DNA of 43,039 bases from a virus (IMGVR_UViG_3300049982_000091:1-43039); one strand, 5' to 3'. Counted from the stretch's first letter, positions 13,272-43,039 are shown. Notes: generated by a model not told the origin, from the sequence alone. A program made the numbers and translations.

Positions 13272-13292
13272 GCGGCTGCCTTCCTGTTGGAA

Positions 13293-13336: not shown

Positions 13337-13354
13337 GCTCGGGTTGGGACGGGG

Positions 13355-14593: not shown

Positions 14594-14610
14594 CGCTGTG
14601 TTTCTCCTTG

Positions 14611-15327: not shown

Positions 15328-15331
15328 GGGG

Positions 15332-18631: not shown

Positions 18632-18887
18632 TGCGAAGCCGCCGGTCGTCGTGCTCGCCCAGGATGCCGTCGATCTCGTCGGCCTCGGGCTCGACCACGT
18701 CCGCGGCCAGCTCGACCAGCTTCAGCAGCGTCTCGCGCAACTGCGCGTAGTTCTGCGCGGCCGGGGTGTCGGCCATGCCGTCGTCCAGGCGGCGAGCGAT
18801 GTCCAGCGCCAGCGCGGCCAGCGACGTGTCTGCGACGTCCGGGCCCCAGCGCTTCAGGTCGGCGGCCACCGCGCTTTCGAGACTCAC
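18624..18887 (-). CDS. Probable terminase small subunit
   Basis: Short helical protein (LALDIARRLDD...QLRETLLKL...DEID) overlapping the terL start. Confidence 0.65.
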   Translation of the reverse strand: MSLESAVAADLKRWGPDVADTSLAALALDIARRLDDGMADTPAAQNYAQLRETLLKLVELAADVVEPEADEIDGILGEHDDRRLRSV

Positions 18888-22618: not shown

Positions 22619-23334
22619 GCGCTCGCCTTCGGGTTGATGCGGTGCCGCTGTGCGGCCACCAGGCGGCCGAGGAAGGCATATTCGGACGGGCCCCAGGCGC
22701 CGCCACAGTGGCGGCAGTGGAGGCCGTCACCGCGCTGCCAGATGATCGCCTCGCGGTCGCCTCGGGCGTTGGGGTCGATGCGGCCTTCGTCGCCGTACTG
22801 CTGGAGCTGAACCAGTGGATCGTCGTGAAGCGGGCAGTGGATCGGCCGGCCGTTGCCTCGAAGCGGCCGGTCGGGTGTGGACAGGCCGATGGCGCGGCGC
22901 GTGAGGTGATGCCACCGGAACACGTCGATGGCGAGGACTCGGGCAGGGCTGCGAAGCTGCCGACCGACCAGGCGCCGGTAGAGGATGCCGATCGAGGCGA
23001 GGGTGTTGGGGATGTCGCCCTGGACGCCGGGCTCGCCGAGGGCTTCGCGTGCGGACAGGGCGGCCGGCCATGCCTGGTCGTGCAGGGCGTTGATGGCGGC
23101 CAGGACGTCGAGGTTGACGGGCAGGACGTGGACGTTCGCCGAGGTGGTGACGCGTTCGCCTTCGGCGGTGCCGGCGTCTCGCTCCAGTGCGGTGGCCAGG
23201 CGCGGGTAGATCTCCAGGATGTCGGCGAGGGCGTCGTCCACTCGGTCGCCGAGGCGGTGAAGGCTGTCGGGCACGGGTCCCTTCCAGGTTCTGGGGGTTT
23301 TGGGGATGTCCCAAGGGCGTATTTGTCTGCTCAT
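22615..23334 (-). CDS. Zn-ribbon protein, possible late-gene regulator
   Basis: LPVNLDVL helical region, HCPLH and CRHCGGAW; at the end of the early operon. Confidence 0.6.
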   Translation of the reverse strand: MSRQIRPWDIPKTPRTWKGPVPDSLHRLGDRVDDALADILEIYPRLATALERDAGTAEGERVTTSANVHVLPVNLDVLAAINALHDQAWPAALSAREALGEPGVQGDIPNTLASIGILYRRLVGRQLRSPARVLAIDVFRWHHLTRRAIGLSTPDRPLRGNGRPIHCPLHDDPLVQLQQYGDEGRIDPNARGDREAIIWQRGDGLHCRHCGGAWGPSEYAFLGRLVAAQRHRINPKASA

Positions 23335-23725
23335 CCCTACGGAGGCCCTCGACCGTCGCTGTCCGTGCCCGTATGCGTTCGGCCAGTAGTAGTTAGTCCT
23401 TCTGAAGGTCTATTTAGGGAGACATCCCCAACATCCCCAAAAGGTCGAAAGTCGGGATCGCCGCAGGTCATGGCCCGTAGGTTCTGGGGACATCTGGGGA
23501 TGCCACGCGCGGCCGATATCCCCAACATGTCCCCAGAACGGGCGTTTCCGCAGGTCAGGCCGGGTATTGCGGTGACATCCCCAAAACCTCCCGAGCAGTG
23601 CGCCGGCGGGACGTGGCGGTGGCCTCGAAGCGCCATATCCGCAGGTAGCGGCCTCGCGAGGTTTTGGGGATGTCGCCTCGGCCGCCGGACGGGCCGAGGG
23701 TTTTGGGGATGTCCCCAGAACGCGC
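23290..23725. repeat. Iteron cluster, candidate lytic replication origin
   Basis: GGTTTTGGGGATGTC at 23296, 23660 and 23699, inverted at 23574; partial copies at 23421-23444, 23481, 23528 and 23709; AT-rich patch at about 23386-23416. Confidence 0.75.
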
Positions 23726-25641: not shown

Positions 25642-26330
25642 CAGGCCCGCCCGTTGGCGGCGCGCAGGCAGACGGGGCGAAGCGGCAGCGGGCCGAGAGG
25701 CTCGGTCCAGGCGTACCGGTTGCCGGTCGCCGAGATCGAGGGCGGCAGTGCCACGTACCCGCCCAGGCCGCGGTAGTCGACGCCGGGCCGAACCTTCGCG
25801 CCGTTCCCGTCGCCGGTCGGGCGGATGAACAGGTGGATGCCACGGCGGCCGGTCAGCGCGCGGCCGATGGTCGGCGGGATCTTCCCTTCGTCGCGCAGCT
25901 TCGCCAGCGACATGTAGCCGTGTGGCGGGTCGATGTCGATCACGTCGAAGTGGTGGCCCGTCGGCGCTCCCACGTTCGCGTCGGGGCGCTGCTGCCACCA
26001 CCGGTCGATGCGGACGGGGTCGAGGGTGGCGTCATAGAGTCCGTGGCCGTCGCGGCCACACTCGCCATGGCACGTGTCGTATCCGGGTTCGCCCTTACGG
26101 TGAGCGCGGCCGAAAAGCGGCCGCTTGTCGCGCGGCAACAGGGGGAAGACTGCGATGCCCTGCGAGGCGTACCAAAGGGCCGCCGAGCGGAGCGCGCCCG
26201 CCCGGCGAAGGCGCTCGTCTTCCTCGGCTTCGAGGTCCTCGACCAGCGCGGTCAGGTCGCGGACCGCGTCGTCGTCGCCGCGGTCGAGGGCCGCCTGAAG
26301 CTTGTCGATGATGTCCTGATCGAGGATCAC
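25641..26330 (-). CDS. Bifunctional DNA primase/polymerase (Prim-Pol)
   Basis: AVFPL..DKRP, ATLD...WW..PDANVG, VIDID, TGRRGIHLF and DYRGLGGYVALPPS motifs. Confidence 0.92.
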   Translation of the reverse strand: MILDQDIIDKLQAALDRGDDDAVRDLTALVEDLEAEEDERLRRAGALRSAALWYASQGIAVFPLLPRDKRPLFGRAHRKGEPGYDTCHGECGRDGHGLYDATLDPVRIDRWWQQRPDANVGAPTGHHFDVIDIDPPHGYMSLAKLRDEGKIPPTIGRALTGRRGIHLFIRPTGDGNGAKVRPGVDYRGLGGYVALPPSISATGNRYAWTEPLGPLPLRPVCLRAANGRA

Positions 26331-29719: not shown

Positions 29720-30264
29720 GCGGCGGCCCTGCTCGGCCAGGCGTTGATCGCGGGGAGGGTCCGACGGTGCGTCTTCGGCATGCCACACAACGGCACGCCG
29801 GCGCGGTCGAGGGCGGCGGCCAGCATGGTGAAGGCGTCCGCTTCGTTGTTGTTGGCGATGGCGGCCAGCGGCCAGCGGTTCACCGCGGCCACCAGGACGT
29901 CGTCCTTCGAGGCGCCGCCGTTGCCGGTGGCGTAGACCTTGACCGAACCGGGCGTCATGACCAACAGCGGGACGTAGTTACGCCACAAGCGCCAGGTGAC
30001 GTTCCACCACAGGCCCGCGCGTTCATGGTGGCCGCGCTGGCCCTTCGCTGAGCCGTACGACGGGCCCTCGATGATGGCCAGGTCGACCTGGCCTCGCGCG
30101 GCCTGGCCATAGACCGCGCCGGTGATCTCGTGCAAGCGCCCGTGCGGGTCGCTCGCGGCGGTCTTGGGCTTGTAGGTCTCGGTCCAGGGCTTCGGCCAGT
30201 TGCCGGCCAGGCCCGTGGCGGTCAGGGACAGGTCGATCGCGAGGACCCGAGGGGCGTCGGCCAT
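29716..30264 (-). CDS. RuvC-like Holliday junction resolvase
   Basis: AIDLSLTATG, IEG, VKVYATGNGGASK and NEADA motifs. Confidence 0.88.
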   Translation of the reverse strand: MADAPRVLAIDLSLTATGLAGNWPKPWTETYKPKTAASDPHGRLHEITGAVYGQAARGQVDLAIIEGPSYGSAKGQRGHHERAGLWWNVTWRLWRNYVPLLVMTPGSVKVYATGNGGASKDDVLVAAVNRWPLAAIANNNEADAFTMLAAALDRAGVPLCGMPKTHRRTLPAINAWPSRAAA

Positions 30265-30452
30265 CAGGCGCTCGCCTCGACCTTGCACTCTTCGACGTAG
30301 GCCGCGAGCGAGTCGGCGTCGATCCGGTAGTGGCCGTTGACGCCGGCGCCCTTGATGGCGGCGAGTCGCCCCGACTTGATCAGGCGCGTTACCTGCCACC
30401 GCGAGATGTTCAGCGTGTGACAGACCTGGCGCGTCGACAGGTAGGTAGTCAT
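30264..30452 (-). CDS. Xis/Cro-like HTH protein
   Basis: YLSTRQVCHTLNISRWQVTRLIKSGRLAA...YRI; first gene divergent from the repressor. Confidence 0.8.
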   Translation of the reverse strand: MTTYLSTRQVCHTLNISRWQVTRLIKSGRLAAIKGAGVNGHYRIDADSLAAYVEECKVEASA

Positions 30453-30591: not shown

Positions 30592-30963
30592 ATGGATGAG
30601 ACGAGCGCACCCGCACGCCCTCTCTTCGATCGGATCGAGTCAATCCGCGCGAACGCCGGCATGACGAAGACCCGATTGTCGGAAATCACGGGGTTGCCAC
30701 GGGCCACCATCGAGCGATGGCGGGACCAACCACGCCCACCGCTACCCGAGTCGGTGATGAAGGCCGCCGACGCCCTCGGGATCGACCGCGGCGAGGCGCT
30801 ACGCCTCGCCGGAATCCTCGACGGCGTCCCGCCCCCGCTGGACCGAGACGGCGCAGTGGCCGAGCTGCGCGCGAAGCTGGCCGAGATCAGCGCCAGCTCG
30901 GCCGAGATCGAGCGGCGCCTGGCCGAGCTGGAGCGCAAAAACCGACGCCCTAAGGCGGGCTGA
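30592..30963 (+). CDS. Immunity repressor, XRE-type HTH with C-terminal coiled coil
   Basis: RANAGMTKTRLSEITGLPRATIERW...AADALGIDRGEALRLAG; divergent from the early operon. Confidence 0.8.
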   Translation: MDETSAPARPLFDRIESIRANAGMTKTRLSEITGLPRATIERWRDQPRPPLPESVMKAADALGIDRGEALRLAGILDGVPPPLDRDGAVAELRAKLAEISASSAEIERRLAELERKNRRPKAG

Positions 30964-31063
30964 CGGTTGGGGTTTACGCAAACCCAAGCGAGGCCCTAAC
31001 TTGTCAGGCGCATGTGGTGTCATCAGGCGTTACGTCTGGACACGGAGTGGAGGGGGGGTTTAG

Positions 31064-31837
31064 TTGACGATCGAGTTGCGCCAACTACGTGAGTTGGAGA
31101 TTGAGGCCGACCGAGCCGTGGCGCGAGCAGTCGCGGCCAGGGACCGGGTGCGGGCCCTGATCGCCGAGCATGAACAGGCCGAGGCTGAGGACGACGCGCA
31201 GCGCCGCCGCCGGCGGTTCCGCGTGATCGCGCTTCCTGCCGCGCTCGGGATCGGCGTCGCCGCGGCCCGTACGGTGGCCGATGCCTCCTCGAAGACCGTC
31301 GTGGCGGTGGCGGCCAGTAGCACGGTGGCGGCCACGGTCGTGGCGGCGGTGTACCTCGGGCACGCCGGCGGCGGGAACGGGCCGCAGCAGCACGACGCGT
31401 CCAGTCAGCCGAGCAGGCCGGCGGTCGCCGCGCCCGCGCCTCGGTTGCCCCACAAGGCCACGCCGACGCCCACACCGCCCTCGGCCACGCCGACGCCGCC
31501 GGCCGATAGCCCACCGCCGCCGTCGACCAGCCCGCTACCGGGCGTGGACCTTCCCGTCGATGACAGCGCGCCACCAGCGCCGGACCTGCCGCTGCCGGAC
31601 TCCTCGCCCCCCGCCGCAGACACCCACCCCACGCATCCCGCGCACCCTGCGAAGCCCCCGCACGCGGCCCACCCCGAACACCCTGCGAAGCCCCCGCACG
31701 CGGCCCACCCCGCGAAGCCCTCGGCGCTGCTGCCGGCCGCGCCGCTGGTCCAGGTCGACCTCATGCGACAGCGCGTGACCGTGCGGCCTGGCGCGCTCCT
31801 GCCGCGCCTGCTCGGCCAGCACCGACCGGCCGCCTGA
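31064..31837 (+). CDS. Membrane-anchored Pro/His-rich protein
   Basis: GGAGG upstream of TTG; coiled coil, Arg patch, TM segments, HPAKPPHAA repeats. Confidence 0.55.
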   Translation: MTIELRQLRELEIEADRAVARAVAARDRVRALIAEHEQAEAEDDAQRRRRRFRVIALPAALGIGVAAARTVADASSKTVVAVAASSTVAATVVAAVYLGHAGGGNGPQQHDASSQPSRPAVAAPAPRLPHKATPTPTPPSATPTPPADSPPPPSTSPLPGVDLPVDDSAPPAPDLPLPDSSPPAADTHPTHPAHPAKPPHAAHPEHPAKPPHAAHPAKPSALLPAAPLVQVDLMRQRVTVRPGALLPRLLGQHRPAA

Positions 31838-31850
31838 CCCTCCGAACGTC

Positions 31851-31882
31851 GAAGCCCTCGCACCCATCGGTGCGAGGGCTTC
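31851..31882. terminator. Terminator between convergent genes
   Basis: GAAGCCCTCGCACC-cat c-GGTGCGAGGGCTTC (14-bp stem, 4-nt loop). Confidence 0.75.
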
Positions 31883-31920
31883 CTGGCGTCTGCCTTGACA
31901 ATGTAAAGGCGGTGGGCTGG

Positions 31921-32976
31921 TCACCCTGCCGCGAGGTGGCGAGGGTGGCAGCGCGGGCAGGGCCTACCGGCGCCGAAGTCGTCGGCGCTGCCGTCGTTGA
32001 CGTACAGATACCGGTCGCTGGGCACGGCGGGGTCGTGGCGAGGGTCATCACACCGCGGCGGCAGCGCGGGCGCTGACGGCGCCGAGGCGGCCTCGGTGGC
32101 AGCGCCCCACCACGGGCCATCGACGGCGAGCCGGTTGGGGTGAACGGTCGCAGCGTCGGCGGCGAGGACCAGCAGCGCGGGCCCACGCTGGGCGGCAGGG
32201 TGCGCGAGCACCTCGGGCCGCGCGAGGGCGTCTCGGATCGAGGCGACCGACCAGGCCGGCCGCAACGCCCGGACGGCAGTGATCAGTGCGTCGTGTTCTC
32301 CTCGGAGGTCTCCCCCCCCGTTCTGGGCCTCGGCCGCCGCGGTGCCGGTGTGACTCGCGAGGGGCGCGTGGGGGGGTTGTTGTTCTTGTTTAAGTTCTTC
32401 TAGTTGGGGTGCGCTGGGGCGCAGTACCGGGGTGCGTTCTGGCGCAGTACGTAGTGCGTTTGAACGCACTACGGGCCGGCCTGGGGAAACACCCTTCCCG
32501 CCCTGCTCGCGCCGTGCTGCGTTTGAACGCACTACGGGCCGAGCTGCGGAAACGTCGGCCTTCAGGCGCCGGTGGAAGTCGCCGACCGAGCGCGGGCCGG
32601 TGAAGGCGTCCGGCGGGTTGTGGCGCAGGATGTACCGGTTACGGGACCGCATCCCGGCGCTGCTGTAGGTCTGGACGACGTCGAGGGCGCCCGCCTTGAC
32701 CAGCTCGGCGATGTAGGTCGACACGGTCCGGGCCTGCTTCAGGCCGGGGAACGCCTGGCGCATCTGCTCCAGGGTCGGGTAGGCCACGCGGTCGCCGCGC
32801 TGGGCGTTCACGTGGCCGAGCAGCAGGGCATACGTCTTCAGCGCGTTACCGGACACGGCGAACATCAACCATTGCGGCACCATGACCCACGGGGCGACGT
32901 CGCCGGCCATGTGGATCTCGATGACGTCGCCGTCGTCGGGTGCGTCGCCGTTGTCGGCGCCGCTTGCTATGGTCAT
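31921..32976 (-). CDS. HTH replication initiator (lambda O / plasmid Rep-like)
   Basis: WVMVPQWL..VSGNALKTYALL...AYPT...TVSTYIAELVKAGAL...NRYIL winged helix; internal iterons; C-terminal Cys/His cluster; AGAGGAG RBS. Confidence 0.75.
   Translation of the reverse strand: MTIASGADNGDAPDDGDVIEIHMAGDVAPWVMVPQWLMFAVSGNALKTYALLLGHVNAQRGDRVAYPTLEQMRQAFPGLKQARTVSTYIAELVKAGALDVVQTYSSAGMRSRNRYILRHNPPDAFTGPRSVGDFHRRLKADVSAARPVVRSNAARREQGGKGVSPGRPVVRSNALRTAPERTPVLRPSAPQLEELKQEQQPPHAPLASHTGTAAAEAQNGGGDLRGEHDALITAVRALRPAWSVASIRDALARPEVLAHPAAQRGPALLVLAADAATVHPNRLAVDGPWWGAATEAASAPSAPALPPRCDDPRHDPAVPSDRYLYVNDGSADDFGAGRPCPRCHPRHLAAG
32377..32541. repeat. Intragenic iterons plus AT-rich tract (second origin)
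   Basis: Four 19-bp units at 32409, 32432, 32454 and 32517; T-rich tract at 32377-32405. Confidence 0.75.
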
Positions 32977-32979
32977 CTG

Positions 32980-33065
32980 AGACGTACTCCTCTTAGGGTT
33001 CTGGCGAATCTGTGGGGCGTCGGGCCCGCACCTGGTGGCGACCGGGGGCGGGCCTTCTGTTTTTT
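32980..33065 (+). ncRNA. Candidate antisense copy-control RNA opposite the rep leader
   Basis: Extended -10 TGCTATGGT (32965-32973) and a hairpin plus T-tract (33023-33065), both on the strand opposite the flanking genes. Confidence 0.5.
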
Positions 33066-33366
33066 ACGGGTCCATGGTTTTGGACCGTAGACCTGCGCGG
33101 ACAGTGGGGCCAGCGTCACGCGCCGTCGAGGCGTCGCCGGCCGCCGCCTCGGCTTCCAGCTCGCGGACGTGCTGCCATGCCAGGTCGGCCACCTCGGCGG
33201 CGTCGGCCACCTGGTCGCGCTCGGCGATGGCGGACAGGACGGTGGCCTTCCTGCGGTGGTAGGCGAGGCGCTCGGCCACGGGCACGTCGTGGCGCTGGCC
33301 GAGGTCGAGGGCGATCCGGGCCAGCTCGCCGATCTCCTCGGCCAGGCTCGGCAGCTCGGCCGCCAT
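33064..33366 (-). CDS. Hypothetical protein
   Basis: ERLAYHRRKATVLSAIA; TGATG overlap. Confidence 0.65.
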   Translation of the reverse strand: MAAELPSLAEEIGELARIALDLGQRHDVPVAERLAYHRRKATVLSAIAERDQVADAAEVADLAWQHVRELEAEAAAGDASTARDAGPTVRAGLRSKTMDP

Positions 33367-33722
33367 CAGGACGCCGCCGTTCCGTCGAGGGTGGCCACTG
33401 CGTGGTCGATGGCGTCGGCGAGCTGGCCGTTACCGAGGACGCGCAGCAGGGCGGCGACCGAGGGCGCCTCGCGCGGCGTCAGCAGCGCTACGCCGCTGAA
33501 GCCTCGGCCGCCGTGGTCCGTGCCCGAGTGAACGATGCTGATCCGGTTCTCGCCGGGCCGCTCGCCGCCGGCCAGGAAGACGTTGATATGGACATCGCGC
33601 TGGCCGTCGGCGCTGGTGGTGATCGGCGCCGTCGTAGCGGTGCCGCTGTGGATCGTGGCGACGTGGGCGGGTTCGTCGGCGTGATCGGTCATGCACCAGT
33701 TCGGGCATGGGGTGTTGGGCAT
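33366..33722 (-). CDS. Hypothetical protein (CPxWCxxxH motif, DUF6907-like)
   Basis: PCPNWCMTDH...H...LTPREA; GAGAGGA RBS. Confidence 0.65.
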   Translation of the reverse strand: MPNTPCPNWCMTDHADEPAHVATIHSGTATTAPITTSADGQRDVHINVFLAGGERPGENRISIVHSGTDHGGRGFSGVALLTPREAPSVAALLRVLGNGQLADAIDHAVATLDGTAAS

Positions 33723-33740
33723 GGTGCTGGTCCTCTCGGG

Positions 33741-34502
33741 TTACTGGTCGGCGGTCAGGTCGTAGGTCACGGGCCACGTGCGGCCGGGGGCGATGACGTC
33801 CACGCCGTACTCGATCGGCGCCCCGTCGATGTCGGTCACCTCGGACCCGATCACCAGGACGGCGGCCGGCGACTCCAGGCCGAACGCCTCGGTCTCCTCG
33901 GGCGTGGCGAGGCGGGCCTGGGCGGTGGCCACCGCGGTGGCGGCAGTGCGGCCGGTGGCGGCCCGTACGGCGCCGATGGTCCCGCCCTCGATCGGCGCCA
34001 CGTCGAGCAGCTCGGGCGCCGCCTCGGCCAGGTCGCCGTCGAGCCACGACGTCGAGATGGCGGCCAGGCCGCGGTCATCGATGAAGTGCCGCACGCGCCG
34101 GACCGCGGCGGCGCCCTGCTCCAGGCCCAGGGCGGCCTCGACGTAGGCAGGGGCGCCGCTCAGCTCGGCCGATTGGATCTCTGACCGCTCCCCCGGCCGC
34201 GTGGCGCGCCCTGTGGCCAGCATCCGGCGCCACCGCTCGCCGCCGGTCTGGGCGGTCGTCGTGGGCGTGGCCACGGTCGACACGACGCCGTGACCGCCGA
34301 TCAGCAGGCCCTCGGCGCGCAGCGCAGACAGTGCCTTATCGGCGGTCGCATGGCTGACGCCGTACTGGGCTGCGAGGGCCCGCACGCTTGGGACGCGGTC
34401 GCCAGGCCGAAGGGTGCCGTTCTCGATCTGCTCGCGCAGCGCCTCGGCGATCTGCGCGTACGGCGGTACCCGCTGGATCTTCGCGGGCTTGTCCTCGGTC
34501 AT
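33741..34502 (-). CDS. korA: GntR (HutC/UTRA) repressor, KorA/TraR type
   Basis: PPYAQIAEALREQIENGTLRPGDRVPSVRALAAQYGVS..TA.KAL..LRAEGL plus UTRA-like C-terminus; divergent from the transfer operon. Confidence 0.85.
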   Translation of the reverse strand: MTEDKPAKIQRVPPYAQIAEALREQIENGTLRPGDRVPSVRALAAQYGVSHATADKALSALRAEGLLIGGHGVVSTVATPTTTAQTGGERWRRMLATGRATRPGERSEIQSAELSGAPAYVEAALGLEQGAAAVRRVRHFIDDRGLAAISTSWLDGDLAEAAPELLDVAPIEGGTIGAVRAATGRTAATAVATAQARLATPEETEAFGLESPAAVLVIGSEVTDIDGAPIEYGVDVIAPGRTWPVTYDLTADQ

Positions 34503-34540
34503 CTCGGGCCTTCCTTGTCATGGTGTCAGCGACTCCCAGA

Positions 34541-34587
34541 ATCCTAGCCGCTATTGCTTGACACTGTCTAGGACACTAGGACAGTAT
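34541..34587. promoter_or_regulatory. Overlapping divergent promoters and probable GntR operator
   Basis: Rightward TTGACA-18-CAGTAT; leftward TAGACA-18-TAGGAT; tandem CTAGGACA x2 within ACTGTC...GACAGT. Confidence 0.75.
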
Positions 34588-34594
34588 GAGGTCT

Positions 34595-34870
34595 TGTAAG
34601 GCAAGGGACCACGCGGTGAGAGCCGAAGGGCCCCCGGCCTCCGGATCTTGAGAACTTCACATAGGACCCGTCGCCCCCACCAGGGGCGCGAACAGTAGGC
34701 CGGCCGTAGGGCATCCGGTCCACACCAGGGCCGAACCGTTCGCCGGTCGGCCACGCCATGACCCCCCTCGGGGCGAGCGTGACCGCGGTCCTGGCCCGCT
34801 TCGGCGGGGGAACAGTCCGCGCGGCGACCGCCGTACGGGCCGCACCCCAACCGAAAGGCATCACCACCAC
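34595..34870 (+). ncRNA. Long structured leader with boxA-like motif
   Basis: GAGA and C(UUCG)G tetraloop hairpins, further stems, TCTTGAGAACTTCACATAG at 34646. Confidence 0.45.
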
Positions 34871-35008
34871 ATGACCGAGATTCTGTCCCTGCGCGAGATC
34901 GAGATCCTGACCGGCATCTGCAACGAGTTTCACGATTGCGCGAGCAACTGCGGCGAGCGCGAGCTGGCCCGCCGGCAGGAATGGGAGCGCGAACAGCCTG
35001 CTGCGTGA
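34871..35008 (+). CDS. 45-aa Cys/His peptide (cassette 1)
   Basis: MTEILSLREIEILTGICNEFHDCASNCGERELARRQEWEREQPAA; GAAAGG RBS. Confidence 0.6.
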   Translation: MTEILSLREIEILTGICNEFHDCASNCGERELARRQEWEREQPAA

Positions 35009-35071
35009 GCGTGAGCCGGCGGGGCCCGTCGAGTACGGGCCCCGCCGGGTCGAGTCAGGCCGCACCCCAAC
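35003..35071 (+). repeat. About 70-bp hairpin-containing intergenic repeat, copy A
   Basis: Near-identical to 35295-35364. Confidence 0.9.
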
Positions 35072-35084
35072 CGAAGGGCACCAC

Positions 35085-35285
35085 ATGAAGATGGTCGACC
35101 GGCACCGGAAAGCGCAGGACGACGCGTACCTCAAGGATGCGGAAGCGCGTGAGGCTGACGAACCGGGAGCCACAGAAAACGCGAGGGCCGCTCTGGAGCG
35201 GGCCGCCGCGAGGCGGCTGGAAGAGGAGAGCGACCAGCCGCGCACCCCGGTCAGGGATGCGATGCGTAAGCAGGGACTGATCTGA
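35085..35285 (+). CDS. 66-aa hypothetical protein (cassette 2)
   Basis: GAAGGG RBS directly after the repeat. Confidence 0.65.
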   Translation: MKMVDRHRKAQDDAYLKDAEAREADEPGATENARAALERAAARRLEEESDQPRTPVRDAMRKQGLI

Positions 35286-35294
35286 CCCCCGCTG

Positions 35295-35364
35295 GCGTGA
35301 GCGTGAGCCGGCCGGGCCCGTCGAGTACGGGCCCGCGCCGGGTCGAGTCAGGCCGCACCCCAAC
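35295..35364 (+). repeat. About 70-bp hairpin-containing intergenic repeat, copy B
   Basis: Near-identical to 35003-35071. Confidence 0.9.
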
Positions 35365-35379
35365 AGAGAGGACCAGAAC

Positions 35380-35643
35380 ATGGACACATCACCGGAAGCG
35401 CACTTCAATCTCGGCGAGCAGCACCTGAAGGCCGCCGACCGGATGGCCTCCGTCGACTTCGAGGCGGCGGTGTCTTACGGCGTCCTGGCCCGCGCGCACT
35501 TCGATGCGGCCCGGACGGCGAAGGCACTCGGCCTCGACGTCCCGGCCGAGGCGCCCGAGGCGCCGAAGGGCCCGCTGGCCCGCCCCAACTCCTCGGGCCC
35601 GTTCTTCTCCTGGATGGACAACGGCGGTATCGGCGATGACTGA
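35380..35643 (+). CDS. 87-aa hypothetical protein (cassette 3)
   Basis: GAGAGGA RBS directly after the repeat. Confidence 0.65.
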   Translation: MDTSPEAHFNLGEQHLKAADRMASVDFEAAVSYGVLARAHFDAARTAKALGLDVPAEAPEAPKGPLARPNSSGPFFSWMDNGGIGDD

Positions 35644-35899
35644 CCCGCGCATCGCCGACATGACGCTGGCCCAGGTCGGCGAAGTGGTCTTCATGATCGC
35701 CCCGGCCGAGGACGGCAGCGGCTGGGCGGTGAACTCCTGGTGGGGCGGCGAGGACCCACACCGCGACGCCCCGGCCGGCGAGGCCACCGCGCCGACGATC
35801 GAGCAGGGCATGGCCGCCGCCCTGAAGGACATGACCGAGGACGCCACCGAGGAAGAGCCGGACATGGACGGGCCCGTTGGTGGCCCGGTGGTCCGGTGA
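35636..35899 (+). CDS. Acidic hypothetical protein
   Basis: MTDPRIADMTLAQV...; overlaps both neighbours. Confidence 0.6.
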   Translation: MTDPRIADMTLAQVGEVVFMIAPAEDGSGWAVNSWWGGEDPHRDAPAGEATAPTIEQGMAAALKDMTEDATEEEPDMDGPVGGPVVR

Positions 35900-36099
35900 A
35901 GGCCCGCGCGCTCGCCGAGCTGCGGGCACACAAGGACATCGTGCGCTTGTGGGCGGTCGCGCTGGTCGCCCTCGCGCTCGGCTTGCTCATCCTGGCCGCG
36001 CCCCACGACCGGTGGGTCCGGTCCGCCGTCGGGTCGGTGTTCCTCAGCCTCTCCACACAGTGCCTTATGACTTTCGTCCGGAAACGGCGGAAGCCATGA
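35896..36099 (+). CDS. Small two-TM membrane protein
   Basis: GTGA overlap; two hydrophobic helices and a basic tail. Confidence 0.6.
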   Translation: MKARALAELRAHKDIVRLWAVALVALALGLLILAAPHDRWVRSAVGSVFLSLSTQCLMTFVRKRRKP

Positions 36100-36266
36100 C
36101 CGGCGGCCCGTTCGCCGAGGGCCAGCGCGTCATCGCCGAGGACGGGCGCGTCGGGACGTATCGCGGCAGCTTCGGCGATGGCGTCTACGCGTTCGTGGCG
36201 GTCCCCGGCCTCGACCTCCAACTCATTCCGATGGCCGAGCTGGCCGAACACTCCGACACCCCGTAG
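36096..36266 (+). CDS. Small beta-rich protein
   Basis: MTGGPFAEGQRVIAEDGRVGTY; ATGA overlap. Confidence 0.55.
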   Translation: MTGGPFAEGQRVIAEDGRVGTYRGSFGDGVYAFVAVPGLDLQLIPMAELAEHSDTP

Positions 36267-36278
36267 GGAGCACCCAAC

Positions 36279-36563
36279 ATGTCCAGCATCACCACACTGG
36301 CCGCCGCCGCCGTGCCGGCGAAGGTCTCGGCCGGTACCGGCGCCGCCATCGGCGGGACCCTGTTCGTCACGCTCGTACTCGGCGCAATCATCGTCTACTG
36401 CGTGAAACACAAGGGATGGGACACGCCCCAGATCGTCATCGGGTACCTGTTCTGTCTCACGGTCAGCGGCGTGTCCTGGGGCGCGTCGTTGAACGGCTCG
36501 ATCTCGGGCGGCCTGTCCAGTCTCTACGGCGGCGCCATCAACTTCCTGTCGAATCTCGGGTGA
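36279..36563 (+). CDS. Small membrane protein, Spd/transfer-associated candidate
   Basis: AGGGAG RBS; two TM helices plus amphipathic tail; upstream of traB. Confidence 0.65.
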   Translation: MSSITTLAAAAVPAKVSAGTGAAIGGTLFVTLVLGAIIVYCVKHKGWDTPQIVIGYLFCLTVSGVSWGASLNGSISGGLSSLYGGAINFLSNLG

Positions 36564-36567
36564 CGCC

Positions 36568-37707
36568 GTGATCCTCGCCGTACTGGTCGCCGTGGTCCTC
36601 ATCTCGGGCGGTATCGCGGTCCACAAGTACCTTCGCGAACACCCGCCGCCCGACCTCGGCTCGGCACTCGCGAAGATCTACCGGGCCGACCATCCGAAGG
36701 CCCTCGCGCGGGCCCAGGCCGACAAGCGGGCCATCGCCAAGGGCGAGACGGTTCCGGACGGCGTCATGGTCGCACTCGGCCACCTGCTGTTCGGGACCGG
36801 CCGCGCGCTCCGCTACCTCGGCCGCAAGATCCGCGAGCGTGTCGAGGCGGGCCGCGAGGTCCCGCCCCTGGAGATCGTCAACGCCGACGCCGCCGCCCCC
36901 GCGGGCGGCGGCCCGGCCGCCCCCGACACACCGCCGGCCGAGGCCGAGGCCGAGGCCGAGCAGGACACCCCGCCCCCCGACACGACCGCCACCGCGCCGC
37001 AAGAGGAGACAGCACCGATGACCACCACCACCCTGGCCGCGCTTTACGAAGCGAGCGAGGACGCCGCCGCGCAGAACTTCGAGGGCGTCGTGGCCGTCGA
37101 GCGCTTCCTGAAGGCGGTTGCCACCGGTTGCGAGTCCGTGACCCACGTGTGGGTCCGGTGGGCCGAGCGCCTCGGCGGTCCGCTCCATGTCGATGACTCG
37201 GTGGTTGACCACATTCGGGCCTGCGCGCCCCACCAGGCCACCATCGCCGGGCTGACTGGCGAGGCGTCCAGCCACGTGACGGTGCTGCTCGACGGGTCGA
37301 TCACCGAGGCACTGGAGCGCGGACAGGACGTGCCCCACCACCACCTGATGAACTCGGCCGGCGGGTATCCGGCCATCCCTGCGTTCTATGAGCGGTTCGG
37401 GACGTACATCACCCAAAAGCGCGAGGACATTCGCGGCGAGCTGCTGCTGATGGTGGCGGTGAAGGACGCCAGCGCGAAGCAGGCCGAGATGTTCCGATCG
37501 GCCGCGCGCCGAATGGCCGACGCGAAAGACATCAACGTGAAGCGCGCCGCCGAGAAATACCTGGCAGCGGCGAGGGTCCAGGATGCGATCACCGAGCGCG
37601 TCGAGGCGGCCCACGTCCAGTTCGCCGTCATCATCCGGATGTCGATCCGCGCGCTGGCCGACTCCTCGATGAAGGCCCCGAACGCCCAGCTTCATGGCGT
37701 TGGTTGA
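36568..37707 (+). CDS. Transfer-associated membrane protein (traA position)
   Basis: N-terminal TM, Pro-rich linker, helical C-terminal domain; immediately upstream of traB. Confidence 0.6.
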   Translation: MILAVLVAVVLISGGIAVHKYLREHPPPDLGSALAKIYRADHPKALARAQADKRAIAKGETVPDGVMVALGHLLFGTGRALRYLGRKIRERVEAGREVPPLEIVNADAAAPAGGGPAAPDTPPAEAEAEAEQDTPPPDTTATAPQEETAPMTTTTLAALYEASEDAAAQNFEGVVAVERFLKAVATGCESVTHVWVRWAERLGGPLHVDDSVVDHIRACAPHQATIAGLTGEASSHVTVLLDGSITEALERGQDVPHHHLMNSAGGYPAIPAFYERFGTYITQKREDIRGELLLMVAVKDASAKQAEMFRSAARRMADAKDINVKRAAEKYLAAARVQDAITERVEAAHVQFAVIIRMSIRALADSSMKAPNAQLHGVG

Positions 37708-37742
37708 TCCGCTCCACGCCCACGACAGAAAGGACCGCGGCG

Positions 37743-39917
37743 ATGCCCGGTAAGAAGTCACCTCGCGCGCCGCGGACCGCGGCCGATAGGAAGAAGCAGA
37801 ACATCGCGAAGCGCGAGGCGAAAAAGGCCGAGCAGGGCGGCGCCGGCGGGAAGTCGAGGAAAGCGCCGGCGCCGTACATGCTCGGCCAGCAGAACGCGCT
37901 TTATGACTACTACATCGACGGCGGCGCCCCGCTGCCCGAACGCAAACCCGCGTCGTCGTCGGCGTTCGCCTCGGTCTTCTGGTGGTGCCACAAGCGGCGC
38001 GTCGAGCTGGCGCCGTTCGCCGTCGGCGCGGGCCTGCTCGCCACCTCGGCCGCGCTCCACCACGCCGACGCGCCCGCCTGGGCGCCGTTCGCCGGCGCCC
38101 TCGGGAACGTCGCGGTGTGGCTTCCCTGGACGCGCCGCAAGTGGGACCGCCAGGAAGAGAGGACGTACGTCCGGGCGATCATGGCGGCCGGCTCGGTGTG
38201 GACGTCGACCGCGGCCTTCCTCGGCCCGCACGCCGTCATGTTGGCGTTGCTCGCCGGCGGCGTCCTCGGCGGTGGCTACTTCTGGTGGCGCCACAAGTTG
38301 GTCCGGCCGCCGGCCGAGGGCAAGAGCGACGGCGAGCTGCTCGCCTACTGGCGCGCGCAGTGGGAAGCGGTCCGGGACCGCCTCGGGCTGGAAAAGTCGC
38401 GCGTGATCGAAGCCGAAGGCGATGACGACTATGTGGCGCTGACTGTCCAGCTCGTTCCCGGCGTCCAGGTCGCCGAGGACGTCAAGGCGATGAAGGTCAA
38501 GATCGCGGGCGCCCTGCGCCTGCCGGTCGCCGGCGTCCGGGTCGAGACGGTGAAGGCCGACGCGTCGCTGGTGAAGATCTTCATCGTGAAGGTCTCGCCG
38601 ATCTCGGCCGAGGTCAATTGGTCCGAGGCGGCCACGATGCTGCCGACGTCGCTCGCCTCGCCCTCGACGTTCGTGATCGGCCGAGACGAGACAGGGAAGT
38701 GGCGGCGGGTCGACCCGCGCGGCCACTGGATGATCATTGGAGAGTCGCGCTCGGGCAAGTCCAACGGACTCCACGCGTTCATGGCGAACGCCACCGCGTG
38801 CGACGACACGCTGGTGTGGTTCATCGACCTGAAGGGCGGCGCCGTTGGGAAGCGGTGGGGCGACAGCATCGACCGCCTGGCCGACACGATCGACAAGGCC
38901 GAGGCGCTGCTGGAAGCCGGAAACCTGATGATCGACCAGCGCCCGCACTTCGCGCCCGTCGGCGAGGGCGACGGCGACCAGCTCGACCCGAGCCCAGACA
39001 TGCCGGCCATCTTCATCGTGTGCGACGAATTCGCCGAGGCGGTCCGGCGCGGCGGCGCGAGGCTGGTCGGCCTCTTCGAGTCGATCGCGCGCCGTGGCGC
39101 GGCCCTCGGGATCTACCTGGTCCTGGTGGCCCAGGACGGAAGCCTGGAGTCCTTCGGGACCGAGGCGCTGCGCGGCCAGCTCACGCGGCGACTCTGCTAC
39201 CGGGTCGCGAAGGCCGACAACGCCCAGTACGTCCTCACGGGCTGGAGCAAGCTCGCCGTGACGGCGCTCGAAGATGGTCAATTCTTCTGGCACTACCGAA
39301 GCGACGATGAGACGCCGGTCCGGGCGCCGTTCATGACGCCGAAGGGGAACCGGACGCTTCCCCAGCAGATCGCCGCGGAACACGCGGCGTTGCGGCCCGA
39401 CCTCGACGCCCAGACGGTCGCCGCCGGCGGCACGTTCTACGCCCAGGGATGGGACGACACACCCCGAAACGGCGCCACGCCGACGAAGGCGGCAGCGCCT
39501 CGGCCGGTCGAGCGCCAGAATGCCAACACGACCGATCGAGGAGATACCCGCATGGACAGTCCAGCGCAGCGCGCCGCCCAGGCCGAGGCCGAGGCCGCCG
39601 AGCTGTTCGACGGCGTCGCCGAGATACCGACGACGGTCGAGCGGTTCGACGCCGAGCAGATCGACGCCGAGGTGGCCTCGGCCGAAGGTCGCTTCGCGGC
39701 GGCGTTCGCCAACGCCCCGGCCGAGGGCCTCGGCCGCCAGGCCCTGATCGAGATCACGGGCATGTCGAAGTCCTGGACTGATGAACGGCTGACCGCGTTG
39801 ACCGATCGCGGCGTCCTGGAGCGGCCCACACGCGGCAAGTACCGGGCCGCCGCCGGCGCCGACGTCCGGGCGGCCCTGGTCGAACACGCGGACCGTAAGC
39901 GCGCCGCCCTGGTGTGA
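37743..39917 (+). CDS. traB: TraB-type FtsK/SpoIIIE conjugal DNA translocase
   Basis: About four N-terminal TM helices; Walker A GESRSGKS; IDLKGG; Walker B IFIVCDEFAE; ARRGAALGIYLVLVAQ; C-terminal wHTH (GMSKSWTDERLTALTDRGVLERPTRGKY); GAAAGGA RBS. Confidence 0.9.
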   Translation: MPGKKSPRAPRTAADRKKQNIAKREAKKAEQGGAGGKSRKAPAPYMLGQQNALYDYYIDGGAPLPERKPASSSAFASVFWWCHKRRVELAPFAVGAGLLATSAALHHADAPAWAPFAGALGNVAVWLPWTRRKWDRQEERTYVRAIMAAGSVWTSTAAFLGPHAVMLALLAGGVLGGGYFWWRHKLVRPPAEGKSDGELLAYWRAQWEAVRDRLGLEKSRVIEAEGDDDYVALTVQLVPGVQVAEDVKAMKVKIAGALRLPVAGVRVETVKADASLVKIFIVKVSPISAEVNWSEAATMLPTSLASPSTFVIGRDETGKWRRVDPRGHWMIIGESRSGKSNGLHAFMANATACDDTLVWFIDLKGGAVGKRWGDSIDRLADTIDKAEALLEAGNLMIDQRPHFAPVGEGDGDQLDPSPDMPAIFIVCDEFAEAVRRGGARLVGLFESIARRGAALGIYLVLVAQDGSLESFGTEALRGQLTRRLCYRVAKADNAQYVLTGWSKLAVTALEDGQFFWHYRSDDETPVRAPFMTPKGNRTLPQQIAAEHAALRPDLDAQTVAAGGTFYAQGWDDTPRNGATPTKAAAPRPVERQNANTTDRGDTRMDSPAQRAAQAEAEAAELFDGVAEIPTTVERFDAEQIDAEVASAEGRFAAAFANAPAEGLGRQALIEITGMSKSWTDERLTALTDRGVLERPTRGKYRAAAGADVRAALVEHADRKRAALV

Positions 39918-39926
39918 CGGAGCGTA

Positions 39927-40044
39927 GCCGAGTCCCAAACGATCATGACCTTGGGACTCGGCGACCCTCCTTACGCGTAGGCGCGCGAAACGATGTCCCA
40001 TGGGACTCACCCTGGCACTTCGCCGTGGCAATCCCGTGGGACTC
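39927..40044. repeat. TGGGACTC repeat / inverted repeat cluster after traB
   Basis: 12-bp IR at 39927-39938 / 39951-39962; TCCC(A/G)TGGGACTC at 39996 and 40032. Confidence 0.7.
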
Positions 40045-40107
40045 CCCACCACCACCCACAGTGACCAGCACCGACACCCCAACCACATCCCCGAGGAGAC
40101 ACCCCAG

Positions 40108-41010
40108 ATGAGCAAGGACGACACGGCGGAACAGCCCGAGGGCGTCGGATGGCACGTCGGCGGCCTCCTGTTCTTCGGCGGCCTCAACCTCTATTTGAAC
40201 GGTTGGCACGCGCTCCACGCCGGCGGCGGGTCGCTCGTCATCGGCCTGATCGTCGGCGTCGTCCCGCCGGCCGTCGCCGCCTACATGAGCCACGACGTCG
40301 CGAAGGGAAAGGACGTCGGGCTGTGGGCCGGCGCGGTGTGGCTCGCGTGCGCCCTCGGCATGGCGTTGTCGATCAACGCTCAGGCCGCGGTGGTTCGGCC
40401 GTACGCCGGTGACTACGTCTGTTGGGCCTTCCCGCTGATGATCGACGTGGCCACGTTCTACTCGCTGTCGCGTCTCGTGGCGGCGTCGAAGGCGAAGGCC
40501 CAGGCCCGCCAGCAGCGAGCCGAGCAGGCGGCCCAGGCCCGCGCCCAGGCTCTCGCCGAGCGCAAGGCCCAGGCCGACGCCCGACAGGCCCAGGCCCTGG
40601 CAGAGGCCCAGGCCCGCGAGGCCCAGGCCGAAGCAGAACGGGCCCGGGCCCAGGCCCAGGCCGACGCCGAGGGGCGGGCCCAGGCCGAAGCAGAACGGGC
40701 CCAGGCCCGCGAGGCCGAACGGGCCCAGGCCGAGCAGAAGCGGGCCCAGGCCCGCGTGTCGAAGCGGGCCCAGGCCGACACGACGGCGGGCCCGAGGACG
40801 GGCCCAGGCGTCGGTCAGGCCGAATGGCAGGACCGTATCCGGGCCGCCCTCGACGCCGATCCGGGCCTGGAAATCAGGCCCTCGACGGTCGGCGCCGCCC
40901 TCGACGTCGACCCGCAGATCCGGGCCAGCGGCGCCTTCAAGCGCGCCGTCGCGGCGGTCCGGGCCGAGCGCGAGTCGGCGCCCGTACGCCTCGCAGCCGT
41001 CGGCGAGTAG
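40108..41010 (+). CDS. SpdB2/DUF2637-like four-TM spread protein with AQA coiled coil
   Basis: GAGGAG RBS; LNGWHA, VVPP, MALSINAQ, AFPLMIDV; C-terminal HTH-like region. Confidence 0.7.
   Translation: MSKDDTAEQPEGVGWHVGGLLFFGGLNLYLNGWHALHAGGGSLVIGLIVGVVPPAVAAYMSHDVAKGKDVGLWAGAVWLACALGMALSINAQAAVVRPYAGDYVCWAFPLMIDVATFYSLSRLVAASKAKAQARQQRAEQAAQARAQALAERKAQADARQAQALAEAQAREAQAEAERARAQAQADAEGRAQAEAERAQAREAERAQAEQKRAQARVSKRAQADTTAGPRTGPGVGQAEWQDRIRAALDADPGLEIRPSTVGAALDVDPQIRASGAFKRAVAAVRAERESAPVRLAAVGE
40498..40809 (+). repeat. 15 direct copies of GCCCAGGC, candidate clt/TRS array
   Basis: Counted by eye at 40498, 40531, 40543, 40567, 40588, 40606, 40621, 40648, 40654, 40678, 40699, 40723, 40744, 40768 and 40802. 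Confidence 0.65.
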
Positions 41011-41093
41011 CGCCACAACACGACGGGGCGGCCGGGTCCGTAACCACCTGGCCGCCCCATCTGCGCCCCCACCTTGTAACGGAAGGCAGGAAC

Positions 41094-41474
41094 GTGAACA
41101 CGGACACTATCCACCCCCCGCCACTCCCCCAGACGAAGATCGAAATCAACTTGCCGAAGATCTTCACGAAGGCCGCCGACGTCCTGGCCGCCAACGGTCA
41201 CTACAAGGGCGACTTCTACGACATGGCCCAGGTGGTCCGCGGCCGGCGCGCCGAGGACTGCGCGGTGTGCGCGTACGGCGCTCTCAACATCGCCGCGGGC
41301 GGCAGGCCCGACCAGATCAACGGGATGAGCTGCCTTGCGGCGATGGCCCTCGCCGGCTATCTCGCCATACCGGCGACGCCGGCCGCAATCGGCACATGGA
41401 ATGACGCCGACGCCCGGACGCCCGAGCAGGTCGAAAAGGCGTTCCGCGAGATCGCCGAGGAGTTGGCCCGATGA
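41094..41474 (+). CDS. DUF6197-like hypothetical protein
   Basis: KAADVL..NGH.KG...CAYGAL...WND..RT.EQV..FR. Confidence 0.7.
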   Translation: MNTDTIHPPPLPQTKIEINLPKIFTKAADVLAANGHYKGDFYDMAQVVRGRRAEDCAVCAYGALNIAAGGRPDQINGMSCLAAMALAGYLAIPATPAAIGTWNDADARTPEQVEKAFREIAEELAR

Positions 41475-41698
41475 GTGAAACCCGCCTGGTTTGCCTGTCC
41501 GAAGAGAGCGCGGCGACCGTGGCCGACGCATACGCCGATCCGTTCGGCGACAACCCGAGCAACACCGTTCGGCAGGACGGCGCCGAAGTGGTCATCGACT
41601 ACTTCGACAAGCGGTGGCCGCTCGATATCGCCGAGTGGGCTGCCGAGCAGGGCCACGCGTCGGACGCCGACGCCGCTCGCGTGATCGGCGGCCTGTGA
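41471..41698 (+). CDS. Small acidic hypothetical protein
   Basis: GAGGAG RBS; ATGA overlap. Confidence 0.65.
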   Translation: MSETRLVCLSEESAATVADAYADPFGDNPSNTVRQDGAEVVIDYFDKRWPLDIAEWAAEQGHASDADAARVIGGL

Positions 41699-42342
41699 TG
41701 ACCGCCGCACCTGGCCCGCGCGACATCGCCGCCGCCTGGCGGGCCCTCGGAGGCCACCCCGCATACCCACGTCTGCGCGCGTACGCCGAGCAGCGCGCCA
41801 CCGAGAGGAAGTCGCCCACGATGACCGAACCGCCGTTCCCGGAACCGTTCGGGCCCGACTACGTGCGGCCCGAGGGCCCGCCCTGCCCTGACTGCGCGTG
41901 CTGCACTGCGCGTCTGTGCGAGGCCGGCCGCGAGGTCACCGGCGGTTGCGGCCACGTCGGTGGCACGAACCGCGACGTCGTCCTGGCGTGCCCGTGTGGC
42001 ACGGCGCCCGGCAGTGTCGACGCGCTCGGGCGGGAAGTCCGCGACGTGTTGCGCAGCATCCCCGAGAGCCGGCGGCTCGGCGTATCGACGGCGGCCCGGA
42101 TGGCGGGCCGGCGGGCCATACACGCCGGCGTCGTCGGGGCGCCGGCGCGAGTGATCGCCGAGGCGATGCTGGCGCGGGCCCTGGAGCTTCGAGACGAGAT
42201 CGCCGCCGAGCCGGCGCGCCCGCCCTATCCCGAGCCGGGGAGCGAGATTCCCGACCAGCCCGGTTACGTCGTGGGCACGTGCCAGCACCGCGTCGCGGCC
42301 AGCGAATGGCGGGCCGGTTGCCGAACGTGTGAGCGCTGCTGA
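41698..42342 (+). CDS. Cys-rich hypothetical protein
   Basis: TGATG overlap; CPDCACC..LC, CPC and CQHRVAASEWRAGCRTCERC. Confidence 0.6.
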   Translation: MTAAPGPRDIAAAWRALGGHPAYPRLRAYAEQRATERKSPTMTEPPFPEPFGPDYVRPEGPPCPDCACCTARLCEAGREVTGGCGHVGGTNRDVVLACPCGTAPGSVDALGREVRDVLRSIPESRRLGVSTAARMAGRRAIHAGVVGAPARVIAEAMLARALELRDEIAAEPARPPYPEPGSEIPDQPGYVVGTCQHRVAASEWRAGCRTCERC

Positions 42343-42550: not shown

Positions 42551-42751
42551 TTACGACAGCGGCGCCGCCGAGGGCGAGGTGGCGGCCGGCGCCTTCGCCG
42601 GGGCGTTCGGGACCAGCAGCACCACCGCAGCGCCCACGGCAGCGATGACCGTATTCAGGACCAGCTCGGCCGTACCGGCCAGCAGGCCGGACGAAGCGAC
42701 CACGCCAGCGGCGGCGAGCGCGGCGGCGATGGCCTTGCGGTACCTATCCAT
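42551..42751 (-). CDS. Holin-like two-TM protein
   Basis: MDRYRKAIAAAL...VVLLVPN; GAGGAG RBS; directly after the endolysin. Confidence 0.75.
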   Translation of the reverse strand: MDRYRKAIAAALAAAGVVASSGLLAGTAELVLNTVIAAVGAAVVLLVPNAPAKAPAATSPSAAPLS

Positions 42752-42816
42752 CGAGATCTCCTCGCATGAGAACACCCCGGCCATCAGGTCCGGGGCGTGT
42801 CGGTTGGGGCGGTGGC

Positions 42817-43039
42817 CTACGCGCCGGTGGTGTCGCTGACCGCCAGGCGGATGTCGACCTTGGCCAGCTCGTCGGCGATGGTCTTCTTCAGCGCCTCGAT
42901 GTCGGGCGCCGAAGCCTTGACCGCCTCGGCGAGCTGCTGAAGGACCAGGCCCTGGGCGGTCAGCATCGCGCGAAGCTGGTCGACGCCTTCGTGGGCCGCT
43001 CGCGCGTGGCCGTAGCCCGAGCCGAGGGCCGTGTTGACT
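42817..43039 (-). CDS. Endolysin 3' part
   Basis: ...DIEALKKTIADELAKVDIRLAVSDTTGA-stop (TAG at 42817-42819), in frame with 1-717. Confidence 0.8.
   Translation of the reverse strand, partial: VNTALGSGYGHARAAHEGVDQLRAMLTAQGLVLQQLAEAVKASAPDIEALKKTIADELAKVDIRLAVSDTTGA
42883..43039. repeat. Terminal direct repeat, copy 2
   Basis: Matches 1-157 with one mismatch. Confidence 0.95.

Follow-up and report, generated by a model that had tools for sequence, protein, structure and literature searches.

Overall organisation of the genome

The stretch analysed here, referred to as the window, is the whole of the soil virus record IMGVR_UViG_3300049982_000091 of IMG/VR (43,039 nt, listed there as linear and 51% complete). 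It encodes a siphovirus in which the slot after the cI-like repressor gene holds a proline-rich membrane protein gene, a winged-helix replication initiator (Rep) gene, a GntR/UTRA repressor gene (korA) and a divergent tra operon with a TraB-like translocase (Table 1). On balance, the sequence favours a complete, circular and integrase-free siphovirus that a filamentous actinomycete probably carries as a plasmid prophage and that would move both by TraB-driven transfer of double-stranded DNA (dsDNA) and in virions. The 69 proteins were called with a codon model, and families were assigned from Pfam, PHROGs and NCBIfam.

Table 1. Features of the window, in order of position
Feature	Position	Strand	Remarks
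Siphovirus head, connector and tail operon	1759..18887	-	Pfam/PHROGs matches
Repeat cluster, ACATCCCC-type, both orientations	23298..23719	.	After the Prim-Pol/helicase pair; candidate lytic origin
DUF3987 helicase and Prim-Pol	23755..26330	-	PF13148 E 2e-90; PF09250 E 1e-33
HTH_17 excisionase-like gene in Cro position	30264..30452	-	First of early lytic operon; PF12728 E 5e-11; TIGR01764 over cut-off
cI-like repressor	30592..30963	+	HTH_3/HTH_26; PHROG repressors; divergent from HTH_17 gene
Proline-rich membrane protein	31064..31837	+	Two hydrophobic segments; no family match
Winged-helix replication initiator, 351 aa	31921..32976	-	phrog_270 E 1.5e-6; HTH_36/Phage_rep_O look-alikes
Repeats within rep, candidate iterons/origin	32404..32553	.	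41-nt pair, 88% identical, and inverted pair
Two small genes, one DUF6907	33064..33722	-	Between korA and rep
KorA/TraR-like GntR-UTRA repressor	33741..34502	-	PF00392, PF07702; divergent from tra operon
Candidate tra promoter	34558..34587	+	Read from sequence; tandem 8-nt repeat 34568-34583 in spacer
Seven small genes, two for membrane proteins	34871..36563	+	Head of tra operon; codon-model calls, hydropathy
TraA-like protein	36568..37707	+	N-terminal membrane anchor; conserved C-terminal region resembling two ~110-aa unit copies
TraB-like FtsK/SpoIIIE dsDNA translocase	37743..39917	+	Walker A/B intact
Candidate clt	39918..40107	+	Core 39972-39988 (purine-pyrimidine) with flanking TGGGACTC-type 8-mers
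Spd-like membrane protein, coiled coil, HTH-like C-terminus	40108..41010	+	Homologues after traB in L001, L005, L007, L034
In-gene array of GGCCCAGG, 14 copies	40497..40808	+	Candidate site of Spd-like HTH
Three downstream genes, first DUF6197	41094..42342	+	
Holin-like gene (42551-42751) and lysin 3' end crossing circle junction	42551..43039	-	

The ends of the record overlap by 157 nt with one mismatch, giving a closed circle of 42,882 bp without host DNA, and the lysin frame starting at 717 continues through the overlap to a stop at 42817; both confirm the closed circle of the preliminary description. At position 42913, the base in the probable source run is that of the start copy (depth 12.2/12.2). 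IMG/VR probably missed the terminal repeat owing to the single mismatch. One public run, the probable source, contains the stretch, while runs X2 and X3 do not contain the element. When this run was assembled separately, single pieces were obtained over 29606-31672 (cro, cI and the proline-rich gene), 31683-33980 (the proline-rich gene, rep and korA) and 39976-43039 (spd, holin and lysin, extending 303 letters beyond the record end), at a depth of 9-12.8, as in the phage arm. That assembly joined a phage to a conjugative plasmid in a single false record is suggested by the record's origin from one metagenome only and by the 10-nt break between assembly pieces at 31672-31683, within a tandem repeat, the whole stretch being spanned by no single listed contig. 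We regard this as highly improbable because unrelated phages (G002 and C70, below) carry the same cassette beside tail or lysis genes; in addition, the single pieces of the separate assembly lie at the depth of the phage arm, and the GC content at third codon positions is similar in both arms (0.82–0.94).

The genes for TerL, portal, protease, HK97 capsid, adaptor, tail tube, tape measure, Dit and fibre show no interruption, each matching its family (Pfam/PHROGs), and the virion and packaging gene set is complete. The intact head and tail genes of the preliminary description are thus borne out, with the lysin identified less firmly: it matched no family in the searches and gave a weak pairwise match to one other phage lysin. 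The lysin may be CHAP-like, to judge from a Cys and a His in CHAP-like spacing. The gene (1-717, minus strand) encodes a Ser at the position where CHAP-like enzymes often have Glu, and an internal ribosome-binding site before residue 159 may yield a second, C-terminal product. As regards the repressor/Cro switch described earlier, the cI gene stands (HTH_3/HTH_26) and the gene in the Cro position is profiled as excisionase-like instead.

Likely replication initiator and search for recombinase and partition genes

The winged-helix protein is likely, from its sequence, a plasmid Rep. Its profile matches a pFP1 protein (E 2e-23) and an S. anulatus plasmid protein (E 3e-23), with homologues on 20 actinomycete plasmids including pFP1 and in 14 phage records; the profile search matched no solved structure. 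The homologue lies behind a GntR gene both in pFP1, which has no annotated virion genes, and in the S. anulatus plasmid, which has capsid and terminase genes, as here. The rep gene is co-oriented with korA, as on plasmids, and the slot between GntR and Rep holds one small gene in pZL12 and the S. anulatus plasmid. The peptide repeat encoded within rep is also present in P0040 and P0042. A Rep relative (P0040, 70%) and a TraB relative (P0003, 82%) are each on a 28,313-bp contig, which is probably one and the same.

The genome holds a second replication gene set, Prim-Pol and helicase, with a repeat cluster of its own, and this set likely serves the lytic arm. The stretch 23242-23754 is gene-free, and the repeats in it flank an AT-richer centre. 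L008 has an analogous cluster after its helicase (1198-1487), with a different word.

No match to PF00589, PF07508, PF00239 or PF13614 was found in six frames at E ≤ 1; as controls, the same profiles were positive in 14/14, 6/14, 13/14 and 14/14 genomes, respectively. None of 130 further open reading frames (the lysin plus 129 from the other frames, each 100 aa or longer) matches integrase or Par families. The largest gene-free gap is 513 nt, and no tRNA or tRNA fragment was called. This six-frame profile search, which the preliminary description had proposed as a check, upholds its statement that tyrosine and serine recombinases and ParA are missing. An actinomycete integrative and conjugative element of the pSAM2 type would have an integrase and an att site, as a rule within a tRNA gene; neither is present, nor is ParA-type partition, which is common but not universal in phage-plasmids. 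A dif-like arm was discarded (5 matches, 3.3 expected by chance). We read the element as a plasmid prophage because Rep is present and a recombinase is missing.

Predicted transfer cassette

The GntR gene is divergent from an operon with membrane proteins, as described before and as in TraB/clt systems, and its product is 38% identical to the pFP1 GntR protein and 33% to pZL12.80. The tandem repeat in the spacer of the tra promoter is a candidate KorA operator; a promoter consensus scan reported other sites nearby but not 34558-34587. A leader of ~70 nt with a perfect 14-pair hairpin is duplicated at 35003-35074 and 35295-35367 (98% and 92% in two blocks). Both copies precede small tra-operon genes, and the last part of the leader occurs once more before 34871. 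Compared with shuffles, the region folds far more stably (z -5.3), and it has no Rfam match; a scan with an 18-nt leader motif gave two loci, neither with tra genes, and no related cassette.

A small membrane gene is also found before traA in L001, L004 and L008, and the TraA-like gene lies directly before traB in L001, L004, L005, L006 and L008 without exception. The TraA-like protein has 33 relatives, among them stand-alone proteins of 220–226 and 110–125 aa, and neither it nor its domain matched a family in Pfam, Atlas (best 0.80) or PLSDB. In front of the conserved C-terminal region, at 37002-37022, lies a strong internal ribosome-binding site with an ATG.

The translocase is a membrane-anchored FtsK/SpoIIIE ATPase whose Walker A and B motifs are intact, and its best NCBIfam match is plasmid_TraB (E 2e-23). 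One segment passes a hydropathy cut-off of 1.6. The C-terminus has a weak helix-turn-helix (HTH) match at 680-702 (E 0.007) and a conserved helix pattern; the membrane segment and FtsK motor of the preliminary description stand, and its winged helix is a candidate. A single-protein scan of IMG/VR returned nothing, and alignment queries were needed to find relatives. The 38 homologues, including the protein itself, are nearly all metagenomic, the only named one being from Nonomuraea (41%); this relative, WP_452419643, is encoded on a 37,955-bp contig of Nonomuraea sp. NPDC004354. In a tree of the motor domain (37 sequences, 262 columns; pPaSha2 and Wofford included, five P-numbered rows left out), the clade of the translocase, together with its sister clade made up of viral sequences, groups with plasmid Tra proteins at an ultrafast bootstrap (UFBoot) of 100, the outgroup being two gammaproteobacterial FtsKs. 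Against this outgroup, the phylogeny proposed earlier favours TraB over chromosomal FtsK.

The intergenic region after traB (39918-40107) is likely the clt. It contains four of the seven genome copies of the TGGGACTC-type 8-mer, at 39930 in reverse and at 39952, 40001 and 40037 in forward orientation. A core, RCGYRGGCR, lies at most 120 nt past the traB stop in all 14 loci with a complete traB end, while whole loci have only 2–24 matches; it is flanked by short locus-specific repeats, those on the upstream side being reversed in most loci. The repeat count is not in itself unusual, as 35 of 854 background windows reach the same count; conservation, not repeat count, carries the case. We take the site as clt because the mapped clt of pWTY27 has the same position, adjoining the tra gene, and the same mixture of direct and inverted repeats (PMC3583192). 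The conserved core was not seen after the eight reference tra/FtsK-like genes listed. A scan with a 19-nt core pattern gave three loci, namely the record of L001 again and two chance matches without traB. The array within the spd-like gene was rejected as clt, comparison across loci favouring the intergenic site.

The Spd-like protein is an analogue by position and topology, without a Pfam DUF2637 (SpdB2) match. Two segments pass the hydropathy cut-off of 1.6 and two further hydrophobic stretches are visible by eye, as compared to the four transmembrane segments described earlier. The 14 copies of GGCCCAGG in its gene compare with a mean of 4.5 and a maximum of 12 in 2000 synonymous-codon shuffles; another possible source of such an array is recent tandem duplication. 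Arrays of other words occupy the same place in L001, L004, L005, L007 and L008. L004, L005 and L008 have a common Spd HTH stretch and a common array word, whereas their TraB helix and post-traB repeats differ; L001, L007 and the present genome differ in both Spd HTH and array word. As the array word tracks the Spd HTH in loci that differ in TraB helix and post-traB repeats, the sequences suggest two protein–site pairs, TraB helix with post-traB repeats and Spd HTH with in-gene array.

Related loci and host

The cassette is real and mobile. In the IMG/VR record G002, traA-traB-spd adjoins tail genes; in C70, a 35-kb contig that also encodes TerL, its neighbours are genes for holin, amidase and tail proteins. 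The sister clade is found in a further nine viral loci. Scans with the exonuclease and KorA revealed no close sister phage (best 47%; a short 43% match). Among named capsid homologues, those of Microtetraspora and Microbispora come nearest (71%), and for this reason, and in view of the Nonomuraea relative of TraB, the host is likely a filamentous member of the Streptosporangiales and not Streptomyces.

Some loci show peculiarities of their own. A PP2C-like phosphatase gene and an unknown regulator take the place of KorA in L019 9691-12416 (G001:C70) and L004 2260-3937, and an additional SsgA-family gene heads the tra operon of C70. L008/G001:C70, an actinophage contig of 69.5% GC, is binned as uncultured Cellvibrionaceae and probably mis-binned. 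In L011 185-5365 (G003), a block of ~2.9 kb occurs twice in tandem, possibly as an assembly artefact.

Twelve related viral records (the nine sister-clade loci, G002 and two weak matches) were inspected for recombinases, and here the relatives weigh against a plasmid prophage. Five of the twelve, including both complete ones, have a tyrosine recombinase, as has C70; one has a serine recombinase domain, none has ParA, three match a terminase profile and one is classed as a provirus. None matches Rep over its full length, and one shows a short C-terminal match. In favour of a plasmid prophage, a provirus whose TerL is 57% identical holds a tyrosine integrase at the position behind cI that is taken by rep and the cassette here. 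The cassette alone does not imply a plasmid prophage because relatives carry it with a recombinase.

Accordingly, the element could be a phage, lytic or integrating, whose integrase was lost recently or that integrates by means of a host recombinase, the circle being its replication or packaging form and Rep a spare lytic initiator. The excisionase-like first early gene hints at an integrating ancestor, circular assemblies can also stem from replicating or packaged phage DNA, and Rep homologues occur in phages, where they are annotated RepA-like, and beside DnaB in the Thermobifida phage P1312, so that Rep could be a lytic initiator. Low-copy plasmids seldom lack both ParA and a resolvase; the two are present in pZL12, pFP3 and the 36.7-kb NBC_01259 plasmid. 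Nonetheless, no integrase remnant is seen in any frame and no gap could hold one, neither a tRNA fragment nor an excess of dif-like arms marks an attachment site, the separate Prim-Pol/helicase set probably already serves the lytic arm and rep has the orientation relative to korA that it has on plasmids. We consider such a phage quite improbable.

Comparison with known systems

The closest likeness in layout is to pZL12/phiZL12 (NC_013420) and the S. anulatus plasmid NZ_CP108377 (89.7 kb, with capsid and terminase genes), in which virion genes are combined with a tra operon, a divergent GntR gene, a small gene and a Rep-like gene. KorA is 33% identical to that of pZL12, and the TraB profile matches pZL12.71 (E 5e-14) and the S. 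anulatus protein (E 2e-24). There are also differences. The present genome is 42.9 kb as compared to ~90 kb for both, has neither the ParAB nor the recombinase of pZL12 and shows no TerL or capsid match; no relationship links its TraA-like gene to pZL12.72, Rep matches pZL12.82 only marginally (probability 4.5%) and the module lies between cI and lysis genes instead of beside the terminase. Homologous head genes, ParAB, a recombinase and a size of ~90 kb mark the pZL12-like group, and none is found here; the genome works like pZL12 but is no member of its group. For pZL12, cited as a plasmid-phage, transfer is stated to depend on a tra gene and two neighbours (PMC3583192, PMC7157519), and pSLE1 is described as similar to it (PMC4487206). 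phiNon1 of Nonomuraea is reported as circular as well as integrated (PMC5431353).

pFP3 (NC_023067, 34 kb) and Pseudonocardia pPaSha2 (CP052773, 41.9 kb), both deposited as plasmids and compared from their sequence records, each combine a small siphovirus gene set of HK97 type with genes for FtsK/TraB and DUF2637. A divergent GntR gene is present in pFP3 too, and in pPaSha2 holin and repressor flank the cassette, as here. Unlike the present genome, both plasmids retain a recombinase gene; pFP3 has ParA and DnaB, and the translocases of both fall in other tree branches. The hybrid concept of the preliminary description is precedented by pZL12, the S. anulatus plasmid and pFP3, which show the same layout. 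Phage-plasmid hybrids with TraB are already known, and the present one is a stripped-down variant.

pSVH1, pIJ101, pWTY27 and Nocardiopsis pSQ10 share the GntR gene divergent from small genes and a membrane-anchored FtsK-like ATPase, with short repeats directly after the tra gene. Their TraB proteins are only ~23–26% identical to the present one, and the DUF2637/SpdB2 match of TraB/clt/TraR/Spd plasmids is missing here. In such plasmids, TraR controls TraB, which pumps dsDNA from clt, and spread of the plasmid through the mycelium is the task of Spd proteins (PMC4447253). For the Spd-like HTH and its array, SpdA2 of pIJ101 serves as the model, a DNA-binding protein with a site (sps) inside its own gene that aids segregational stability (PMC4170104). 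SpdA2 is small, however, with a conserved 12-bp palindrome present 2–3 times, whereas here a 300-aa membrane protein is paired with 11–16 copies of a locus-specific 8-mer.

P1312 (KT021004), a cultured Streptosporangiales siphovirus, encodes an FtsK-like protein (29%), with repeats following its gene, and a Rep homologue (31%), and differs in having a serine recombinase and DnaB. Its description suggests a role in DNA segregation, without mention of conjugation, and reports lytic behaviour (PMC4569894). The FtsK-like protein of the Streptomyces phage Wofford (L051 2389-4203) is sister to the pFP1 plasmid Tra (UFBoot 100).

These phages bear on whether the pump acts between colonies at all. TraB and the Spd-like protein might instead move phage DNA across the cross-walls of one mycelium, during infection or carrier growth, without mating. 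TraB and Spd do drive intramycelial spreading, and for SpdB2 homologues on some actinophages a role in the spread of phage DNA has been proposed (PMC4447253). The occurrence of FtsK-like genes of this group in the lytically behaving P1312 and in Streptomyces phages, for example Wofford, would fit as well, as would the cassettes found beside recombinases. TraB alone is, on the other hand, the crucial gene for pSVH1 transfer (PMC4447253), KorA control, Rep and clt are arranged as on the conjugative plasmids pFP1 and pSQ10, and the equivalent region of pZL12 is cited as needed for conjugal transfer (PMC3583192). We judge spread confined to one mycelium to be rather unlikely.

Proposed life cycle

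The anatomy supports the TraB-type phage-plasmid of the preliminary description and is strengthened by Rep and the clt candidate, both absent from that description; the cassette by itself is no proof, given the recombinases of its relatives. Some further points weigh against it. The translocase scores 82.8 bits, below the plasmid_TraB equivalog cut-off of 800, and no actinobacterial chromosomal FtsK is included in the tree. The HTH/array pattern comprises six loci, three of them close kin (TraB 54–61% identical), and the array is found in none of eight sister-clade loci. Replication, virions and transfer are all predictions from sequence.

For the plasmid prophage, the following course is proposed. 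cI would silence the lytic arm, and Rep would fire the repeats inside its own gene, keeping the circle as a theta plasmid. KorA would repress the divergent tra operon until hyphal contact. TraB would then load via its C-terminal helix on the 8-mers at 39918-40107 and pump the uncut circle into the recipient hypha. The membrane-anchored Spd-like protein may bind the array in its own gene and tether the circle or spread it through the mycelium; such tethering may replace the missing ParAB. On induction, Prim-Pol and helicase would replicate the genome from the second origin and the HK97-type head would package it. We infer plasmid maintenance by Rep, prophage transfer by TraB, Spd-like tethering and lytic replication by Prim-Pol from the gene content. 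That TraB transfer bypasses receptor resistance is speculation.

Other features

An N6/N4 DNA methyltransferase gene is located at 18884-20167 (minus strand), directly before terS. Proline-rich membrane-anchored proteins are encoded at 887-1400 (minus strand, lysis block) and 31064-31837 (plus strand); they look unrelated and match no family.

Implications

New here are the recombinase-free and Par-free minimal form, the likely Streptosporangiales host, the uncharacterised TraB/TraA clade and the two-site architecture. Among titles and opening abstracts, in a search that lay outside most subscription journals and all supplements, no paper was found that deals with the present clade of TraB, the clt core or an example without Par. 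The genome is a clean case, as neither recombinase nor Par blurs its reading, and it extends TraB-type phage-plasmids beyond Streptomyces. Phage-plasmid surveys sought conjugation via relaxase and mating-pair genes (PMC7969092). The one-protein TraB system probably lacks these genes, and TraB-type conjugative phage-plasmids may therefore be undercounted. With 14 natural TraB-helix/clt pairs and six HTH/array pairs, a recognition code, and possibly Par-free segregation, become open to direct test.

A wider reading, which we put forward tentatively and with more doubt than confidence, joins these points. The element would be a minimal Streptosporangiales phage-plasmid without recombinase or Par, its lysogeny run by two self-encoded protein–site pairs, and the cassette would be a mobile lysogeny module of many unrelated soil actinophages. 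As part of this, the new TraB clade would load bidirectionally at a conserved core with swappable 8-mers, and the membrane HTH protein on its own-gene array would substitute for ParAB. Were the wider reading true, dsDNA conjugation would be a common second transmission route for unrelated soil actinophages.

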